From Candidatus Magasanikiibacteriota bacterium (lineage in GTDB: Bacteria > Patescibacteriota > Patescibacteriia > Magasanikbacterales > GWA2-37-8), in assembly GCA_903853785.1 (NCBI GenBank), contig CAINUM010000063.1, forward strand, positions 2,974 to 66,973: a stretch of 64,000 bases of DNA, given 5' to 3'. The notes under the pieces were generated by a model. The model ran no database searches and had not been told where the DNA came from. It saw only the letters and a list, made by a program, of their open reading frames with translations. This document shows, piece by piece, positions 1,473 through 18,730 of this stretch (its first letter is position 1; each line of letters starts with the position of its first letter). The translations under genes and the position numbers were made by a program.

Positions 1473-2177
1473 TTATTTTAAAATTGTTTTTAATAAATTT
1501 ACCGCGTGTTCATTCATTATATCAATTTTTTCATCTCCCGACAAATAGTGTAGTTGGGTGCCTAGACTGGAAAAAAACCTGCCGTATTTATCTTCGTGGT
1601 ATTTTTGTGAAGATTTTTTCATAAAATCAATTTTTTCAAAAATCGCATCATCTTGTTTGTGGGTTCTAGACACCAACCGTTCAAAGGCAATTTCTGGCTC
1701 GATCTTCATTAGGATTAGGTGATCAGGGCGGTTTTGAGCTGCCAATCGATTTCCAACCAGGTCAGCCACTGTTTCCAGAGTAAGAGTTTGATCTTGAGCT
1801 GGCTGATAAGCCAAAGAAGTACTTAATCCACGATCTTGAATAATCGTCTTTCCTTTTGCTAAAAGAGGGATGATGATCTTCGTGTAAAGAACTAGTCGGT
1901 CAAGCGAGTGAGCGTCAGCGATCGCTTCGGCTGAATAATTATTTTTATTATTTATGAGTTCTTCACGTAAAACTTTTCCAATTCCAGTATAAGTGGGTTC
2001 GGCAGAAAAAATATAATCAAAATTTTCCATTTCTTGTAGCTCTGGATAGCGATCGTTTTCTTTTAAATAATTTTTCAAATCAAAAATTGTTTTACCCTGA
2101 TCGGATAAATATTTTTTCCAAGCAGAAACGATCGTGCTTTTTCCGCTACCATCAATACCATCAATCATGATTAGCAT
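1473..2177 (-). CDS. tmk: thymidylate kinase
   Basis: IDGIDGSGKST P-loop near the N-terminus, the dTMP kinase pattern. It is 1 nt downstream of folA in the same orientation. Confidence 0.85.
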   Translation of the reverse strand: MLIMIDGIDGSGKSTIVSAWKKYLSDQGKTIFDLKNYLKENDRYPELQEMENFDYIFSAEPTYTGIGKVLREELINNKNNYSAEAIADAHSLDRLVLYTKIIIPLLAKGKTIIQDRGLSTSLAYQPAQDQTLTLETVADLVGNRLAAQNRPDHLILMKIEPEIAFERLVSRTHKQDDAIFEKIDFMKKSSQKYHEDKYGRFFSSLGTQLHYLSGDEKIDIMNEHAVNLLKTILK

Positions 2178-5229: not shown

Positions 5230-5697
5230 TTATTTCATCCAATCTGAAATATACTGTCGACATTTGATTCCGGCTGCATCGAGCATTCGGCGTGAGGCGA
5301 TACAAGCGTCAGTATCGTGGTATTTGTCACTTTCGTAAATAATTTCTACTACTCCATTTTGGAGAAGGGTTTTGGTACATTCATTACATGGAAAGAGGGT
5401 GCAATAAATTTTAGCACCAGAGACTTTTTGACTGGAATTGTAGACAGCATTTTCTTCAGCATGACAAACATAGGCATATTTGGTTTCAGTAAAGCCACCA
5501 TCCCGGTCCCATGGTAAAATTCCACTCTCAATTCCTCGAGGGAAGCCATTATAGCCCAGTCCTAAAACAACATTGTGTTGGTCTGTAATGACCGCACCAG
5601 CCTGTGTGCTAGGGTCTTTTGAACGTTCAGCAATAGTATGGGCTATTCGCATGAAGCACTCGTCCCATGGAATGGCATTTTCTCTGTCTGTTAACAT
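5230..5697 (-). CDS. dCMP deaminase (cytidine/deoxycytidylate deaminase family)
   Basis: HAEENA and PCNECTK zinc-binding motifs (H-A-E ... P-C-x-x-C). Confidence 0.85.
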   Translation of the reverse strand: MLTDRENAIPWDECFMRIAHTIAERSKDPSTQAGAVITDQHNVVLGLGYNGFPRGIESGILPWDRDGGFTETKYAYVCHAEENAVYNSSQKVSGAKIYCTLFPCNECTKTLLQNGVVEIIYESDKYHDTDACIASRRMLDAAGIKCRQYISDWMK

Positions 5698-6717: not shown

Positions 6718-7720
6718 ATTTCAAAGCTTCGTCGATAATTTTCTTCGCCACACTAATTGAATAAGCTGGTCTTAGCCCCATGGTAGTTTCTTGGCACAAC
6801 ATTATTCCATTTACACCATCTAAAACCATATCGGTAAGATTGATAATTTCAGCACGATAAGGGATATAATTATTGATAGTACTTTCCAAAATTTGTGTTG
6901 AAACCAAAATTAAACGTTTGTATTTTTTTGCAGTATTTATGATGTTTCTCTGGATAAGACCGATTTTTTCAAACGGTACGTTAACTCCAATTTCACCTCT
7001 ATCTAACAAAACATAACGATATGATTCATCTTGGCAAATAGCTTCTATATTATCTACAGCAATCTGATCTTCGATTTTTAGCATTATTTTTGTTTTTGAA
7101 CCGATTTCTTTTTTAACCAATTCTCTTATATTTTTATTTGTTTCCTCTCCAAAATAAGAGACTGCACAATAACTTATGGATAAATCTTTTACCGCTTCAA
7201 ATATTTTTTTGTAATCATTTATCACATTATTTTCATCCAAGCGATTTGTGATATTAAAAGTTTTCATATACTGAATTACACCGTTGTTGAGGATTTCACA
7301 TTTAATTGTGTCTGTATCAATAATCTCTTTTACGTGTAAAGCGATCTCACCATCGCCATGTGTAATTAGTTGATTTACTCTAACCTTCTCTCCTAGTTTT
7401 TGAATTTGAACAGGAATGAATTGGTTGCAGTCGTTAGAATATGAAGCGGATTTAAAAATAAATTCTTCTTTTTCTCTTACCGCAAACATTTTAATATCAA
7501 AATCGCCTAAGCGGACTTTGTTTAACGGCATATCGATCATGATTTTGCATTCACTATGCAATTCATCGATTGCTTCTTGAGCGATTTTTATATTATTTAC
7601 ATTAGCCTCAATTGATCCGTAAGAAAAATTAAAACGCAAAATATCAGCCCCAGATAAAATTATTTTTTTTATTTTATCCTCTGCAAATGAATTAAAGCCA
7701 ATTCCAGCAATTATTAACAT
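6692..7720 (-). CDS. pyruvate kinase-like protein (barrel domain only, lacks C-terminal domain)
   Basis: RFNFSYGS (PK RLNFSHG motif), LLDRGEIGVNVP (MVARGDLGVEIP) and CQETTMG (SGETAKG) are present. At 342 aa it is about 130 aa shorter than canonical PK. Confidence 0.65.
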   Translation of the reverse strand: MLIIAGIGFNSFAEDKIKKIILSGADILRFNFSYGSIEANVNNIKIAQEAIDELHSECKIMIDMPLNKVRLGDFDIKMFAVREKEEFIFKSASYSNDCNQFIPVQIQKLGEKVRVNQLITHGDGEIALHVKEIIDTDTIKCEILNNGVIQYMKTFNITNRLDENNVINDYKKIFEAVKDLSISYCAVSYFGEETNKNIRELVKKEIGSKTKIMLKIEDQIAVDNIEAICQDESYRYVLLDRGEIGVNVPFEKIGLIQRNIINTAKKYKRLILVSTQILESTINNYIPYRAEIINLTDMVLDGVNGIMLCQETTMGLRPAYSISVAKKIIDEALKYERSRSKS

Positions 7721-9045: not shown

Positions 9046-11100
9046 TTATTTACACTCCTTATTGGAACATTTGATCTCACCTTTGAAAGTTTGGGTAAGT
9101 AGAGAACCACATTTTTCACATTTTTCACCAGTTGGTTTGTCCCAAAGCGCAAAATCACATTTAGGATATTTGTTGCAACCGTAAAATGTTTTTCCACGTT
9201 TGCTACGACGTTCTGCCAAATCTCCCTCAAGACATTTTGGACATTTTACTCCAGTGACTACGTCGATATTTTTTGTTGTTTTGCATTCTGGATAACCGGT
9301 GCAGGCCATAAATTTGCCAAAGCGACCAGTTTTAATAACCATTGGTTTACCACATTTTTCACAAACCTCTTCAGTAGTTTCATCTGGAATTTTTTCTTTT
9401 TGAGGAATTTCTTTGTCTTTAATTTTCAAATTTTCTTTAAAAGGATGATAAAAATCAGCAATCACTGGTTGCCATTGTTTTTCGCCTCTAGCAATCGCGT
9501 CAAAGTTTTCTTCCATCTGGGCAGTAAAAGAAAAATCGACAATATTTGGAAAGTGTTGAACCAATAAATCGTTTACTACAAAAGCAACTTCGCGAGGTTT
9601 GAGGCGTTTTTTATCGTCACGTTCAACGTAGCCACGATCCTCGATAGTAGCGATGGTTGGGGCAAAAGTAGACGGTCTGCCAACACCATATTCTTCAAGA
9701 GCTTTAACCAAGGCTGCATCATTGTAGCGAGCGGGTGGTTCAGTGTGGTGCTGTTCTGTTTTTATTTCTTGGCAGTTTACTTTTTCACCATTTTCCAAAT
9801 TTGGCAAAGCGTTATCTTTGCTTTTTTCTGGATATAATTTTAAGAAACCATCAAAGATTATAGTTTGGCCAGTAGCTCGGAAAATATAATTATTTGTGGA
9901 AGTAATATTTGCACCGGTCGATGCGACATCAGCAGCAGCCATCTGTGTACCCATCGCTCGATTCCAGATTAGCTCATAAAGTTTGAATTGATTTTTTTCC
10001 AAAAATGGTTCAACGATAGCTGGAGTTCGTTTAGCTTCAGTTGGACGAATAGCTTCATGGGCTTCTTGAGCATTTTTACTTTTATTGGTATAGGCACGTG
10101 GTTTTTCAAGGCTATATTTTGCACCAAATTCTTCGTCAATCACGGCTTTGGCATCTTCCAAAAATTTTGTTGATAAATTTACAGCATCCGTACGCATGTA
10201 AGTAATCAAACCATGAGAACCTTGTGAACCAAGTTCCACACCCTCATAAAGTTGTTGTGCTAGGCGCATCGTTTGTTTGGCAGAAAATCCTAAACGATTG
10301 TTGGCGTCCTGTTGTAAACTAGAAGTTGTAAATGGAGGTGGGGGATTTCGTTTGCTATTTTTCTTTTCAACTGCACTAACAGTATAAGAAACACCAACAA
10401 GGTCTGCAAATATTTTATCGGCCGTTTCCTTATTTTTAATATCCAATTTTTCTAATTTTTTTTCAGGTGTAGCCGAAAGTTTGGCTTCAAAATTTATTTT
10501 TTCTTTATTTTCAAAAATACCCTCTACAGACCAGTATTCTTCTGGTTTAAAATCTAAAATCTCTCGTTCGCGTTCGACGGTGAGTCGCATGGCCACACTT
10601 TGTACACGACCAGCAGATAGTCCCTTGGCTACTTTGCGCCATAAAAATGGAGATAGTTCATAGCCTACCAATCTGTCTAAAATACGTCGTGCTTGTTGAG
10701 CGTCAACCATTTTTAGATCCAGTGCTCGGGGGTTGGCAATGGCATGTTCAACAGCAGTTTTGGTAATTTCATGGAAAGCAATACGTTGGGCTTTGGCCGG
10801 ATCTACACCCAATACTTGTGCCAAATGCCAGGAGATCGCTTCTCCCTCACGATCCTCATCGGTAGCGAATAGGATGTCGTCAGTTTTTTTGGCAGCGTCT
10901 TTAAGTTCTTTGATTACTTTGCTTTTGTCACGACTATTGATGTATTGTGGTTCAAAATTATGTTCAATATCAATACCCATCTTACTTTTTGGAAGATCAC
11001 GAACATGTCCAAATGATGATTTGACGACAAAACTTTTCCCTAAGAATTTGGAAATAGTTTTGGCTTTAGCCGGTGACTCTACTATGACAAGTTTTGACAT
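9046..11100 (-). CDS. topA: DNA topoisomerase I
   Basis: MSKLVIVESPAKAKTISKFLG Toprim start is present. The true start is the internal ATG at 11100, not the track start at 11244. C-terminal C4 zinc ribbons include CEKCGKPM...CTGYPEC. Confidence 0.9.
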   Translation of the reverse strand: MSKLVIVESPAKAKTISKFLGKSFVVKSSFGHVRDLPKSKMGIDIEHNFEPQYINSRDKSKVIKELKDAAKKTDDILFATDEDREGEAISWHLAQVLGVDPAKAQRIAFHEITKTAVEHAIANPRALDLKMVDAQQARRILDRLVGYELSPFLWRKVAKGLSAGRVQSVAMRLTVEREREILDFKPEEYWSVEGIFENKEKINFEAKLSATPEKKLEKLDIKNKETADKIFADLVGVSYTVSAVEKKNSKRNPPPPFTTSSLQQDANNRLGFSAKQTMRLAQQLYEGVELGSQGSHGLITYMRTDAVNLSTKFLEDAKAVIDEEFGAKYSLEKPRAYTNKSKNAQEAHEAIRPTEAKRTPAIVEPFLEKNQFKLYELIWNRAMGTQMAAADVASTGANITSTNNYIFRATGQTIIFDGFLKLYPEKSKDNALPNLENGEKVNCQEIKTEQHHTEPPARYNDAALVKALEEYGVGRPSTFAPTIATIEDRGYVERDDKKRLKPREVAFVVNDLLVQHFPNIVDFSFTAQMEENFDAIARGEKQWQPVIADFYHPFKENLKIKDKEIPQKEKIPDETTEEVCEKCGKPMVIKTGRFGKFMACTGYPECKTTKNIDVVTGVKCPKCLEGDLAERRSKRGKTFYGCNKYPKCDFALWDKPTGEKCEKCGSLLTQTFKGEIKCSNKECK

Positions 11101-15037: not shown

Positions 15038-16534
15038 TTATTCTTTGTTAACGCTTAAATCCGATCCCAAAATGATCAGTATATCGGCTTCTGTATTAAA
15101 TTTTAAATTTGGATTTGTCTCTTCTGTGCTAGAATTTATGTTATTACTACCATTTTTTATCCATTCTGGCAAGACCGTCTCCACTCGGGCGGTAATTTCT
15201 TTTTGAAGAGCTGTAACAATGTCATTGGAAAGCTTCGGATTAACTACATATATAGTAGTCATATCGATAGGACGTTTTGGACTATTGGCAGCTGGTAAAG
15301 TAGAAAATCCTTTTTCTTGAAGATCTTGTTGGTATTTAGCCGCAAGACCGGCTCTCCAGGTACCGTTTAAGATTTGGATTTTACCTGTAGGGAAAATAGA
15401 TTTGTTTTCGGTAGACAAATTTTGAGCAATTTTGACATGATTGCTGTCAAAAACATTTTCTATAGCCAAATTAATGTCGTCAAAATTTCCAGTGCGAGGA
15501 GCTAAAATATAGGCACCGCTATCCGCTATGTAAGATTTTAAGAATCCGTTTTCTGAATTATCCAACACCAGCATTTTAATATTTTTATCAGCATCTTTGG
15601 CCAGGTTGGCTAAATACATCATTTGACCAAAATTTAAATTGGTAGTTATGTGTGAAGATAAAGATTGTAGAATACTTTGAACACGAACTGGATTTGTATA
15701 AGTTCCAACAGATAAAAGTTTTTCTTTTAAAGCTGAGATCATCAGCTGTTGGCGACGAGAACGAGCAAAATCTGAGCCTTCACCATTATTACCATGGCGA
15801 GAACGAGCAAAATCTAAAGCTCGTTCACCATTCATAGCTTGAACACCCGCATCAAATGTTAAAGTTCGATAAGAATAATTTGGACCAGGGAATTCGTAAT
15901 CAACAAATGAACGTGGAACATTTACGGTCACACCACCAACCTCGTCGATTATTTCTTGAAAAGCAGTAAAATCGACGCGAGCATAATACGGAATTTCCGC
16001 CCCAAAAGTTTTGGCGAAAATATCACGAGCGTATTCACCGCCAGACCCAGCTGCTTGAGCTTCGCCAAAAGAATCCGCGGAATTAATTTTTCTAACACCG
16101 TGATTACCGATGGTTACCCCTAAATCTCGAGGTACGGAAATCATTGCTACTTCATTGGTACTAGGTTTGATGCTTAGAATTATGTTGGTATCAGATAAAT
16201 ACGGGCCATCATGACCTGCACCACCAATGCCTAACAATAAGATATTAATGCGATCGTCTTTTTGTCCTTCAAGTACGTTGTCGGCATGAAAAATAAAATT
16301 TTTGACTGTTTGTAATATGCCGACATTTTTTGGTTTTAGGGTGGTTAAGTCGTAATTTGCCGGATCGTCAGACCATTTAGCGAGTGAATAGTTACGATAA
16401 GTATTGCAACCGACGATGAACAAAAGCCCGACTATAATAAAAAATAGCCAAAACAGTTTTTTTCTTTTTGGCTTAGGTTCGTCCAGTTCCAGTTTCTGTG
16501 GTTCTAGTAAATTTATTGGGTCTTTTGTTAACAT
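15038..16534 (-). CDS. LytR-CpsA-Psr (LCP) family cell-envelope phosphotransferase
   Basis: N-terminal TM anchor, then DTNIILSIKPST...MISVPRDL...VNVPRSFVD, the LCP core. A C-terminal LytR_C-like extension follows. Confidence 0.8.
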   Translation of the reverse strand: MLTKDPINLLEPQKLELDEPKPKRKKLFWLFFIIVGLLFIVGCNTYRNYSLAKWSDDPANYDLTTLKPKNVGILQTVKNFIFHADNVLEGQKDDRINILLLGIGGAGHDGPYLSDTNIILSIKPSTNEVAMISVPRDLGVTIGNHGVRKINSADSFGEAQAAGSGGEYARDIFAKTFGAEIPYYARVDFTAFQEIIDEVGGVTVNVPRSFVDYEFPGPNYSYRTLTFDAGVQAMNGERALDFARSRHGNNGEGSDFARSRRQQLMISALKEKLLSVGTYTNPVRVQSILQSLSSHITTNLNFGQMMYLANLAKDADKNIKMLVLDNSENGFLKSYIADSGAYILAPRTGNFDDINLAIENVFDSNHVKIAQNLSTENKSIFPTGKIQILNGTWRAGLAAKYQQDLQEKGFSTLPAANSPKRPIDMTTIYVVNPKLSNDIVTALQKEITARVETVLPEWIKNGSNNINSSTEETNPNLKFNTEADILIILGSDLSVNKE

Positions 16535-16584
16535 ATAGTAGGAAAATCATACCATAAAATATCATAAAAAGCAACTTGTCGGGG

Positions 16585-16613
16585 TTGATTTATTTTTTTC
16601 TTTGTGATAGAGT
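16585..16613 (+). promoter_or_regulatory. candidate promoter upstream of tRNA-like minihelix
   Basis: TTGATT-17nt-TAGAGT places a transcription start about 15 nt before the minihelix. Confidence 0.3.
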
Positions 16614-16631
16614 AAATTCGAACTCAAATCA

Positions 16632-16670
16632 GGATGATTAGCTCAGCTGGTTCGAGTCCAGTATCATCCA
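16632..16670 (+). ncRNA. tRNA-like minihelix (acceptor stem plus T-arm, no D-stem or anticodon arm), possibly a tRNA pseudogene or processing signal
   Basis: GGATGAT-TAGCTCA-GCTGG-TTCGAGT-CCAGT-ATCATCC-A. A 7-bp acceptor stem, a 5-bp T-stem with the canonical TTCGAGT T-loop and a D-loop-like TAGCTCAG remnant. There is no anticodon arm. Confidence 0.35.
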
Positions 16671-16688
16671 CGGGTTAAAATTATTTCT

Positions 16689-17192
16689 ATGCCAAAGAAT
16701 ATTTTAAAAGAGGAGATCAATATTGGAGAAGTCCAATATGAGTGGACGGTAAAGGAATACGAGCAGCATGAGCGAAATCAAAAATGGTATTGGGTGATGG
16801 GAGCGATTGGAATTGCCATTACGGTTTACGCAGTGTTGTCTGCCAATTATCTATTTGCGTTGATTACAGTCTTGTTTGGGATAATTTTATTCATGCAAGA
16901 TATGGTGACGCCAATGGATGTGTATTTTGCAATAACCAATACTGGAGTAGTGATTGGAAAAAAGTATTATCGCTACAGTGAATTTACAACTTTTTGGATG
17001 ATATACAATCCGCCAGTTACCAAGAATTTGTATTTTTCACAGGACAATGTTTTGAACCACCGCATTCAAGTGCCATTGTATGATTATGATCCGATGCCAA
17101 TTCGCGAATATTTAGCTCTATATATGGAAGAGGATTTAGAGCAAGAAGAAGAGCCACTTAGCGAACGCATGGGTAGAATATTGAAAATATAG
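16689..17192 (+). CDS. hypothetical small membrane protein
   Basis: 167-aa ORF with two hydrophobic helices and an acidic C-terminus. It starts 18 nt after the minihelix. Confidence 0.45.
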   Translation: MPKNILKEEINIGEVQYEWTVKEYEQHERNQKWYWVMGAIGIAITVYAVLSANYLFALITVLFGIILFMQDMVTPMDVYFAITNTGVVIGKKYYRYSEFTTFWMIYNPPVTKNLYFSQDNVLNHRIQVPLYDYDPMPIREYLALYMEEDLEQEEEPLSERMGRILKI

Positions 17193-17205
17193 TAAAGAAG
17201 TTCCT

Positions 17206-17277
17206 GCACCCATCGTTCAATGGATAGGACATTGGCCTGCGAAGCCGAAAATTTAGGTTCGACTCCTAATGGGTGCA
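17206..17277 (+). tRNA. tRNA-Arg (anticodon read as GCG)
   Basis: Manual fold: acceptor GCACCCA/TGGGTGC, D-stem GTTC/GGAC, anticodon stem TTGGC/GCCGA with loop CTGCGAA (U33, anticodon GCG, A37), T-arm TTAGG-TTCGACT-CCTAA and discriminator A. CCA is not encoded. Confidence 0.8.
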
Positions 17278-17280
17278 CAA

Positions 17281-17312
17281 AAAAACGCTTTTATCAAAAG
17301 GCGTTTTTTATT
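17281..17312 (+). terminator. terminator-like hairpin after tRNA-Arg
   Basis: AAAAACGCTTTT-ATCA-AAAGGCGTTTTTT, an imperfect stem followed by a T-run. Confidence 0.45.
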
Positions 17313-17327
17313 TGTTTATGTTCTGGA

Positions 17328-17356
17328 TTGATTTTTTCAAATATCATTGGTATACT
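17328..17356 (+). promoter_or_regulatory. sigma70-type promoter of GC-rich element A
   Basis: TTGATT-17nt-TATACT. The GC-rich block begins about 8 nt after the predicted +1. Confidence 0.5.
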
Positions 17357-17370
17357 TTTTTTGTTTGATG

Positions 17371-17725
17371 CCTGTTGCAAGAGCACAGGAAATCCAGTCT
17401 ACAACTTGGAGGTTTCGATGAAGTTGATCGCACACGCTGTCCATATTCCATTTTTGTTCTGTCTGCTCGGCGGGGTTCGTCTTTCAGCAGTGATCTGCCC
17501 CCCCATCTCGCTGGTTCCGTCCAGCGACCCGTGGCCGCGAATGCCGCAGAACACCGATCGTCATCGTGGTCGGCGTGAGTTCGTGTCGGCGGTCGCCAAC
17601 GCCCAACGCATCGCTCAGCGCAACTCCAATGGGTGCCGCCGCCGCTAGCCGGCGCTGAACCCTTGTTGGTATCAAACCCCGCTGTGCGTCGACTAATCCA
17701 AAGGAGTAGTCCGGCGCACACATAC
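17371..17725 (+). ncRNA. GC-rich structured-RNA candidate A (unknown family). Contains a possible 77-aa sORF at 17417..17650 preceded by GGAGG
   Basis: About 355 nt at roughly 60% GC in a roughly 35% GC genome. Own promoter and terminator. The 3' hairpin TGCGTCGACTA-ATCCAAAGGAG-TAGTCCGGCGCA (17685..17718) is conserved, with covariation, in element B. Confidence 0.45.
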
Positions 17726-17756
17726 TTTAGACTCAAGTTATTGTCTCTAGAGAAAG

Positions 17757-17792
17757 ATAAAAAATTCCAATTGAATGTTGGAATTTTTTGTT
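17757..17792 (+). terminator. Rho-independent terminator after element A
   Basis: AAAAAATTCCAA-TTGAATG-TTGGAATTTTTTG, a perfect stem plus U-run. Confidence 0.6.
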
Positions 17793-17853
17793 TGCCAAAC
17801 TTTTTATGTATGATATACTTTCATTATTAAACAATGATTTAAATAATTATTTT

Positions 17854-18693
17854 ATGTCTGAAGTATCAAGTGAAGACAAAGCTAAACAAGCGGAATTCAA
17901 AGCACCAACATTCGAAAAAAAAACTTCTTCAAAAGAAGTACAGCTTTTGGATTCAAAATATTTTCAAGCAATGAATCGACTTTATCAATTACAAAATAAA
18001 GTAGGAAAAGAAAGTATTCCCCAAGCGATTTTGGATAATAAAGACTTGAAAGCAGTGGTGGATGAAGTGCTGGCCGACGCCAGATATAATCCTGAAGGCA
18101 AGAAAATAGAGGATGTAGATTTTAGCTTAGTAGATGATAAAAAAACAAACAAATTAGGTGTACTTGGAAAGAATAAACAAGCAAGAACTAGTTGGAATAA
18201 AGATAATCCTTTTTATCGTGCATGGGTTAAAGATGCAAAAGATATTATGCCTGAAGCAGGAGAAGATATTGAGGATGTATTGCCAGACATTTCGGATGTT
18301 GGACCAGTTGAACCAATTATCAGCGAAGACGATAAGCAAACGGTGGCAGAGGCGGATAGTGCAAAAATTATAGATATCAGATCTAGAATAAATGATTTTA
18401 CAAAGTCCGAAAAAGCATTTTTTAATAGTGAACACGATGAGATCGCCCCTGCTTCTACAGCGGAGGAATTGGCTCAAGCTAAAAAGATTTTAGGATCAGA
18501 TCAAGATGATGGAACTTATCGTTCAGGTCAAAGTATTACACCGGGTGGTTCGACAAAGACTTGGCTGGAGAAAGGGTTGTTGGCAATAGGAGCTAAAAAA
18601 TTGGGTGAAGCAATCGCAAGAAGTAATAAAAAAGAGAATCCAATAGCAGAAAAACCAAAGACTGATGATAAAATCGACAAACTCGCAGCCTAG
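17854..18693 (+). CDS. hypothetical acidic low-complexity protein
   Basis: ORF starting MSEVSSEDKAKQ. The track start at 17788 overlaps the upstream terminator, so the ATG at 17854 is preferred. Rich in D/E/K with no motif. Confidence 0.5.
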   Translation: MSEVSSEDKAKQAEFKAPTFEKKTSSKEVQLLDSKYFQAMNRLYQLQNKVGKESIPQAILDNKDLKAVVDEVLADARYNPEGKKIEDVDFSLVDDKKTNKLGVLGKNKQARTSWNKDNPFYRAWVKDAKDIMPEAGEDIEDVLPDISDVGPVEPIISEDDKQTVAEADSAKIIDIRSRINDFTKSEKAFFNSEHDEIAPASTAEELAQAKKILGSDQDDGTYRSGQSITPGGSTKTWLEKGLLAIGAKKLGEAIARSNKKENPIAEKPKTDDKIDKLAA

Positions 18694-18701
18694 AACAAGC
18701 A

Positions 18702-18730
18702 TTGACTTTTTGGCCTAAATATGCTATACT
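18702..18730 (+). promoter_or_regulatory. sigma70-type promoter of GC-rich element B
   Basis: TTGACT-17nt-TATACT immediately followed by the GC-rich block. Nearly identical -10 and spacing to the element A promoter. Confidence 0.5.

Follow-up and report, generated by a model that had tools for sequence, protein, structure and literature searches.

At positions 16632-16670 of a 64,000-nucleotide stretch of DNA from a Candidatus Magasanikiibacteriota bacterium (the window, by which we mean the whole stretch that was analysed), 39 nucleotides can be folded into the top half of a tRNA, which raises the question of whether this locus carries a special tRNA-like element that serves the gene starting just downstream, or whether it is what remains of an ordinary tRNA gene. 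Read on the plus strand, the element consists of GGATGAT, TAGCTCAG, CTGG, TTCGAGT, CCAG, T, ATCATCC and a final A. Its acceptor stem joins 16632-16638 to 16663-16669 by seven Watson-Crick pairs, and its T stem joins 16646-16650 to 16658-16662 by five pairs, G16646-U16662 among them; the T loop, TTCGAGT at 16651-16657, fits the T-loop consensus, and A16670 stands in the place of the discriminator. The 39-mer thus combines four features of a tRNA, namely a 7-bp acceptor stem, a discriminator, a 5-bp T stem and a T loop of the TTCRANY type, and it does not form the canonical cloverleaf with a D arm and an anticodon arm carrying an anticodon. In tRNA numbering, positions 8-15 (TAGCTCAG) are retained at 16639-16646 as an 8-nt remnant of the D arm, while nothing is left of the anticodon arm, the variable loop or the 3' strand of the D stem.

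Folding of the 39-mer with RNAfold returned exactly the acceptor stem plus the T arm at a minimum free energy (MFE) of -14.1 kcal/mol, compared with a mean of -6.9 kcal/mol for shuffled sequences (z = -3.46; 0 of 200 dinucleotide shuffles were as stable). The folding signal needs the whole 7-bp stem, since a fold begun one base late, with the loss of one pair, gave z = -0.79. The element is passed over by tRNA finders: ARAGORN left 16632-16670 uncalled and made tRNA-Arg(GCG) its sole call across the 64-kb window, Rfam at the gathering score left it uncalled in the window, and a relaxed Rfam scan of 16400-17400 (E ≤ 10) gave no RF00005 match at this position. Two other candidates around the element were rejected. 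One is a tRNA-Sec match at 16583-16669 (19.8 bits, E = 0.48), which pairs GGTTGAT with ATCATCC and receives no support from relatives; the other is the leader AATTCGAACTC, the reverse complement of the T-loop-like GAGTTCGAATT, which is unconserved in relatives and was treated as chance.

The 167-aa ORF that follows the element has 73 homologues with 47-90% identity, of which the named ones belong to Candidatus Magasanikbacteria or Patescibacteria metagenome bins, and loci around homologues sampled across this identity range served as our relatives. Their gene order is Der/EngA and LytR_cpsA_psr (minus strand), a position X, the 167-aa ORF and tRNA-Arg(GCG), and it holds for all relatives with an ORF protein identity of 51-90%. 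Position X is occupied by an intact 74-nt tRNA-Val(CAC) in 8 of 8 related lineages (L001/L002, L004-L006, L007/L008, L010, L011, L049-L051 and L059-L061), as called by ARAGORN, and in the relatives sharing synteny this gene ends 10-40 nt upstream of the ATG of the ORF. The most distant relatives, L052/L053 (47%), have another upstream neighbour, and ARAGORN found no tRNA-Val there. Up to its discriminator, the intact 74-nt gene reads GGATGATTAGCTCAGCTGGTTAGAGCGTTGCATTCACATTGCAAAGGTCACTGGTTCAAATCCAGTATCATCCA. It is 100% identical in L059, L001 and L010, the flanks of which are about 80% identical to the window, and the acceptor stems of the intact genes (GGATGAT/ATCATCC, GGATGTA/TACATCC and GGCCACT/AGTGGCT) display compensatory changes in farther relatives. 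Because the gene stays identical despite diverged flanks and its acceptor stem changes in a compensatory manner, these comparisons indicate that the intact tRNA-Val(CAC) is a functional and strongly constrained gene. The nearest relatives compared at the DNA level, L059/L061, are 83% identical to the window over 3.6 kb (ORF protein about 90%), and all nearest relatives, at about 83% DNA identity, have the intact tRNA-Val(CAC). The 39-nt form was seen only in the window and in the identical contig L009, the relatives keeping the full tRNA, which indicates that the deletion is specific to the window lineage.

When flanks are included in the alignment, window and relatives are collinear on both sides and differ by one 35-nt gap within the tRNA; MAFFT applied to the tRNA sequences alone misplaces this gap, and the flank-including alignments were taken as reliable. 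Nucleotides 1-21 of the element correspond to gene positions 1-21 without a difference, and its last 24 nucleotides correspond to gene positions 51-74 with two differences, so that the element and the nearest orthologue agree at 37 of the 39 retained positions. Both differences lie in the T loop, at positions 57 and 59, which are variable among the intact genes too. The two matching segments overlap by the six nucleotides CTGGTT, a hexamer that the intact gene carries twice, at positions 16-21 in the D loop and at positions 51-56 from the T stem into the T loop. The 35 missing nt comprise one of the hexamers and the 29 nt that separate it from the other. At the junction, the G before the sole surviving hexamer is that of the D-loop copy, and the CGAGT… after it is that of the T-arm copy. 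This also explains why the T stem has G-U as its basal pair: G15 of the D loop took the place of A49.

The locus therefore has what is expected of a tRNA-Val(CAC) pseudogene, an orthologous, syntenic position and collinearity apart from a disabling lesion. Because all related lineages examined keep an intact tRNA at this place, we read the minihelix as the leftover of an ordinary tRNA-Val: positions 16632-16670 are very probably a tRNA-Val(CAC) pseudogene, to which a single loss of 35 bp between direct repeats gave rise, and no evidence contradicts an origin by deletion. The ancestor of the lineage would have carried the 74-nt gene that is still present in relatives, and a single 35-bp deletion between the CTGGTT copies would have taken out the whole anticodon arm together with the variable loop and the 3' strand of the D stem, leaving a footprint typical of replication slippage or of another microhomology-mediated deletion. 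A neat acceptor/T-arm minihelix is the automatic product of such an event because both parts of the tRNA top half are untouched; as it follows automatically from the placement of the repeats, its shape requires no selection and is no evidence of design. The stems tell little about what happened afterwards. They carry no substitutions. By our own estimate from the L059/L061 comparison sequences, about two would be expected for a deletion dating back to the split, and fewer for a younger one. The absence of substitutions is compatible with neutrality, and with 39 nt and an undated deletion it is uninformative. The sequence-only reading had described a tRNA-like minihelix without an anticodon arm, which is present and reproduced by RNAfold, and among the origins it offered was a decayed tRNA, which is borne out by the syntenic intact tRNA-Val(CAC) in eight related lineages and the single 35-nt gap. 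It had also named an alignment to an intact tRNA with a simple internal deletion as the result that would speak against a special element, and this is the result obtained, so that the special-element view is not borne out.

We next consider what the loss of tRNA-Val(CAC) means for decoding. Being without an anticodon, the remnant cannot decode, and the reading of GUG must fall to a different valine tRNA encoded outside the window, within the 64 kb of which ARAGORN found no other tRNA-Val; presumably, GUG is read by tRNA-Val(UAC) via wobble. GTG makes up 220 of the 1249 valine codons (17.6%) in the 51 ORFs of the window, the highest NNG share among the four-fold codon boxes examined in these ORFs, and its share in three orthologous genes is 0.22, equal to that in L001, L004 and L049. 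Hence, neither the window ORFs nor the three orthologous genes show a sign of GUG avoidance, and since GUG use is unchanged, codon usage gives no date for the loss of the tRNA.

The surroundings of the remnant bear on whether it is still expressed. A promoter-like site precedes it (Table 1), in which TTGATT at 16585-16590 and TAGAGT at 16608-16613 are separated by a 17-nt spacer; 18 nt lie between the end of the -10 hexamer and the helix. Aligned relatives show little or no variation in the blocks TTGATT and TGnTAGAGT and have them at the same position, which points to this site as the promoter of the tRNA-Val gene in relatives. A consensus promoter scan omits it because it matches 8 of 12 consensus positions, which is below the threshold. 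Farther upstream, a LytR_cpsA_psr protein and the GTPase Der/EngA are encoded on the minus strand. Downstream, the ATG of the 167-aa ORF lies 18 nt past the discriminator of the remnant and is supported as the start because the N-terminus MPKNILKE is invariant among close relatives. The protein has no match in Pfam, and one source labels a member of its cluster "DUF5673 domain-containing protein". The tRNA-Arg(GCG) gene comes next, and the terminator-like hairpin directly behind it is the first such site downstream of the promoter. The promoter, the start of the ORF 18 nt behind the minihelix without a Shine-Dalgarno sequence, and the tRNA-Arg 0.5 kb away are all as the sequence-only reading had them; equally, direct reading confirmed its statement that the element does not duplicate the 3' end of tRNA-Arg.

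Table 1. Coordinates of the features discussed in the text; positions refer to the window unless a contig is named in the first column.
Feature	Position	Strand	Evidence or description
Promoter-like site TTGATT-17-TAGAGT	16585..16613	+	TG at 16605-16606 (extended -10); conserved in relatives
Probable tRNA-Val(CAC) remnant, 39 nt	16632..16670	+	Structure; alignment to intact orthologues; no tRNA call
Deletion junction, sole surviving CTGGTT	16647..16652	+	Alignment to intact orthologues
167-aa predicted membrane protein	16689..17192	+	No Pfam match; no Shine-Dalgarno
Intact tRNA-Arg(GCG)	17206..17278	+	ARAGORN; Rfam, 62.2 bits
Terminator-like hairpin and T run	17280..17309	+	Directly after tRNA-Arg
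Element in L035	about 1640-1700	-	Bacteroidales
Element in L044	about 5280-5340	-	Bacteroidales
Element in L063	about 9969-10007	+	IMG/VR viral contig; between tRNA-Gly and tRNA-Tyr in an 8-tRNA array
Element in L064	about 7426-7464	+	IMG/VR viral contig; 5 nt before tRNA-Gly

From this arrangement, we infer a transcription unit made up of the promoter, the remnant, the ORF, tRNA-Arg as the last gene and the terminator. The promoter is conserved, and the 18 nt ahead of the ORF leave no room for a second one, so that transcription of the remnant, at the head of the unit, most likely continues. The same set of promoter, tRNA-Val(CAC), 167-aa ORF, tRNA-Arg(GCG) and terminator is conserved across Magasanikbacteria (L001-L011, L049-L051 and L059-L061), where the ORF starts 10-40 nt past the tRNA and has no Shine-Dalgarno sequence. 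The ORF lies directly behind the tRNA position in all relatives except the most distant, L052/L053, which makes co-transcription and tRNA-type processing plausible; with its mRNA apparently bracketed by two tRNAs, tRNA processing probably releases the mRNA. The remnant, too, may still be cut like a tRNA, leaving a short ORF leader without a Shine-Dalgarno sequence as in relatives. CCA-adding enzyme recognises acceptor/T-arm minihelices, and since such minihelices are substrates of both RNase P and CCA-adding enzyme, the remnant may still be cleaved off. Cleavage of minihelices by bacterial RNase P is documented (PMC6614837), minihelices of an acceptor arm and a TΨC stem-loop can be charged by aminoacyl-tRNA synthetases (PMC4033280), and the acceptor/T-arm half is the part of a tRNA recognised by many tRNA enzymes (PMC4033280). 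Any cleavage that remains would be an inherited by-product of the ancestral tRNA and would imply no new function.

Three further features of the neighbourhood are recorded here in their own right. Two GC-rich islands lie on the plus strand at 17357-17740 and 18733-19085, with 58-65% GC against 37% for the genome; each is preceded by a good promoter-like site, the first by TTGATT-17-TATACT (17328-17356) and the second by TTGACT-17-TATACT (about 18703-18731), and an identical strong hairpin, GCGnCGACTAATnCnAAGGAGTAGTCCGGCGC, closes each of them. Island 2 is conserved together with its promoter in L001 and L010 and has a folding z of -3.7, and island 1 lies within a lineage-specific insert and has a folding z of -1.9. 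Rfam gave no match to the islands at E ≤ 1, ARAGORN made no call in them, and their 5' motif was without a match in viral contigs; the islands resemble a pair of paralogous structured RNAs, each about 350 nt long, of an undescribed family. The interval 17313-18700, directly 3' of tRNA-Arg(GCG), contains different DNA in every relative: GC-rich island 1 and a 301-aa ORF without a Pfam match in the window, a Biopterin_H-like gene in L001, an SNF2 helicase/methyltransferase in L004, a cupin in L007, an unannotated gene followed by a Fic gene in L011, and methyltransferases in L059. It is a variable spot and possibly an integration hot spot at tRNA-Arg. Finally, a 183-aa acidic protein conserved in L001 is encoded at 19206-19757 (+), just upstream of EF-Tu, and its N-terminus weakly resembles Phd/YefM antitoxins, at an E of 1e-4 that does not reach the Pfam cutoff.

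Does the same 39-nt layout exist elsewhere? We searched metagenome and genome contig collections for the junction pattern GCTCAGCTGGTTCRANYCCAG and also scanned IMG/VR. Of the 37 matches that the contig collections yielded, most lie in coding DNA and are due to chance, and one falls within a class II tRNA (L027, tRNA-Ser); the minihelix architecture was found only in L035 and L044, with L048 and L020 ambiguous. No further Magasanikbacteria copy turned up in the metagenome and genome collections, which apparently omit the window genome itself. Four loci, two of them from Bacteroidales and two from IMG/VR viral contigs (Table 1), share the exact layout of acceptor stem, TAGCTCAG, YTGG, T loop, CCAR, N, acceptor stem and discriminator, with 7-bp acceptor complementarity even though that complementarity was outside the search pattern. 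ARAGORN calls none of the four elements. L035 and L044 are two Bacteroidales species representatives with flanks about 96% identical; their element reads GGGGGCT, TAGCTCAG, CTGG, TTCGAAT, CCAG, C, AGTCCCC, A, with a TAnnTTTG promoter-like box before it, a terminator after it and about 150 nt around it identical. For the Bacteroidales pair, we looked for an ancestor in three relatives by way of the upstream Gfo/Idh/MocA gene, right after which synteny breaks, and found neither a tRNA nor a remnant; for the viral contigs, only the neighbouring tRNAs match in annotated phage genomes, and no relative spans the remnant. The simplest reading of the recurrence at four loci is a repeated slip in tRNAs that share the hexamer between D loop (…YTGGTTA…) and T arm (…YTGGTTC…).

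With these cases in hand, one can ask whether the remnant is an exapted tRNA-like element, kept by selection after, or because of, the deletion. It might act as an RNase P or 3'-processing site that releases and stabilises the ORF mRNA; alternatively, it might work as a tRNA-like small RNA, such as a decoy for, or a substrate of, enzymes that bind the top half. The helix and the T-loop consensus are perfect, as such a role would have it, but the shape is automatic from the deletion, and the sites are too few and the divergence too small for constraint to be detected. The promoter is kept and the ORF depends on it, and the placement of the ORF 10-40 nt behind the tRNA in the syntenic relatives suggests that processing sets the 5' end of the mRNA; in those relatives, however, it is a full tRNA that would do this job. 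The independent rise of an identical 39-nt architecture in the Bacteroidales L035/L044, with a promoter-like box and a terminator, and its presence next to tRNA genes in two IMG/VR viral contigs would also agree with a useful RNA, yet these cases gave no traceable ancestry or conservation in the searches made. Moreover, the truncated form is confined to the window lineage, 8 of 8 related lineages keeping the full tRNA, so that the conservation of a truncated form across diverged relatives that would mark an element of the mascRNA/TLS type is not observed. We regard exaptation as unlikely. A broader version, in which genomic 39-nt minihelices form a class of small tRNA-like RNAs that recurs by YTGGTT slip in unrelated lineages and is then retained, strikes us as decidedly unlikely; if it were true, a top-half mimic would be useful, for instance as a processing handle on a nearby RNA, or because enzymes and toxins that bind the acceptor/T-arm half would meet a decoy or competitor in it.

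It is also conceivable that the organism really has an intact tRNA-Val(CAC) and that the deletion is a rare variant or an artefact that arose during sequencing, assembly or the preparation of the library. The DNA comes from a metagenome assembly, all deletion-carrying contigs may come from one project, and polymerases can jump on structured templates that contain short repeats. Against this, the Logan contig L009 (run ERR4195038), an independent assembly, matches the window at 100% identity across 4826 nt, deletion included, so that an assembler error is unlikely; two assemblies of the DNA, one of them from a single run, thus agree across the junction. A third contig, from ENA/NCBI (61.5 kb) and with the same exact ORF protein, has a LytR-to-ORF spacing of 154 nt as in the window, compared with 188-190 nt in relatives with the intact tRNA-Val(CAC). 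The exact ORF protein occurs on four contigs, and the contigs with the deletion may stem from the same or related samples. Lastly, a collapse of the assembly graph is not expected, because assembler k-mers are all far longer than a 6-nt repeat. Taken together, we hold an artefact or rare variant to be very improbable. The last alternative, an att-site remnant of a mobile element integrated at a tRNA or else a tmRNA or split-tRNA fragment, can be dismissed almost entirely: tRNA 3' ends do commonly serve as integration sites and the DNA 3' of the neighbouring tRNA-Arg does vary between relatives, but besides the 3' part the remnant holds the 5' acceptor strand and the start of the D arm, neither of which belongs to an att duplication, the flanks on either side run collinear with those of relatives and contain no inserted DNA, neither ARAGORN nor Rfam finds a tmRNA in the window, and a split-tRNA half is ruled out because both acceptor strands lie at one locus, so that the integration at another tRNA and the tmRNA-like gene that had also been offered as origins both remain unsupported.

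For the tRNA-Val(CAC) pseudogene, several consequences follow. The annotation should be corrected, the locus being labelled as a tRNA-Val(CAC) pseudogene. The lineage has lost an isoacceptor, tRNA-Val(CAC), at a conserved position while GUG use is still at the ancestral rate. The locus offers a clean natural case of a microhomology deletion that has left an exact tRNA top half standing behind an active-looking promoter, and with it a ready-made in vivo test of how the cell handles a minihelix. The recurrence of the layout in unrelated genomes and viral contigs suggests either a mutational hot spot confined to tRNAs with a GGTT D loop or, less likely, a tolerated or useful RNA.

Compared with known systems, the remnant is closest in kind to truncated or internally deleted tRNA pseudogenes, with which it shares its derivation from a tRNA, the missing anticodon, its being missed by tRNA finders and the orthologous position of an intact gene. 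It differs from them in being a complete and well-folded tRNA top half instead of a ragged one, and in standing behind a conserved promoter; the top half is complete because the endpoints of the deletion fall in the microhomology CTGGTT of D loop and T arm. A second likeness is to the acceptor/TΨC minihelices of the laboratory, which are likewise a coaxial acceptor stem and T arm with a discriminator base, and a valine minihelix was reportedly described by Frugier et al. in 1992. Laboratory minihelices go back to Francklyn & Schimmel 1989-90, as cited in PMC4033280, and pMini3bpUG is one that serves as an RNase P substrate (PMC6614837). These are designed molecules of about 24-35 nt, whereas the remnant is genomic, apparently born of a deletion, and has an extra 7-nt D-arm bulge (TAGCTCA). 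A third likeness is to tRNA-like processing signals, where a cut by RNase P or RNase Z can set the end of a neighbouring RNA; in the window, the remnant is followed after 18 nt by the ORF and then by tRNA-Arg. The tufB operon of E. coli gives rise to a tRNA-mRNA co-transcript. In MALAT1, mascRNA is a tRNA-like processing signal within a longer transcript (PMC8457004). In contrast to both types, the candidate processing element of this clade would be the full tRNA-Val, the truncated form being found in one lineage. Finally, the tRNAs of nematode and mite mitochondria have reduced arms, keep the anticodon arm and still decode. They and the remnant alike are without canonical arms, but what the remnant has lost is the anticodon arm itself, and it cannot decode. 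In all, the remnant is an ordinary kind of feature with a neat mechanism.
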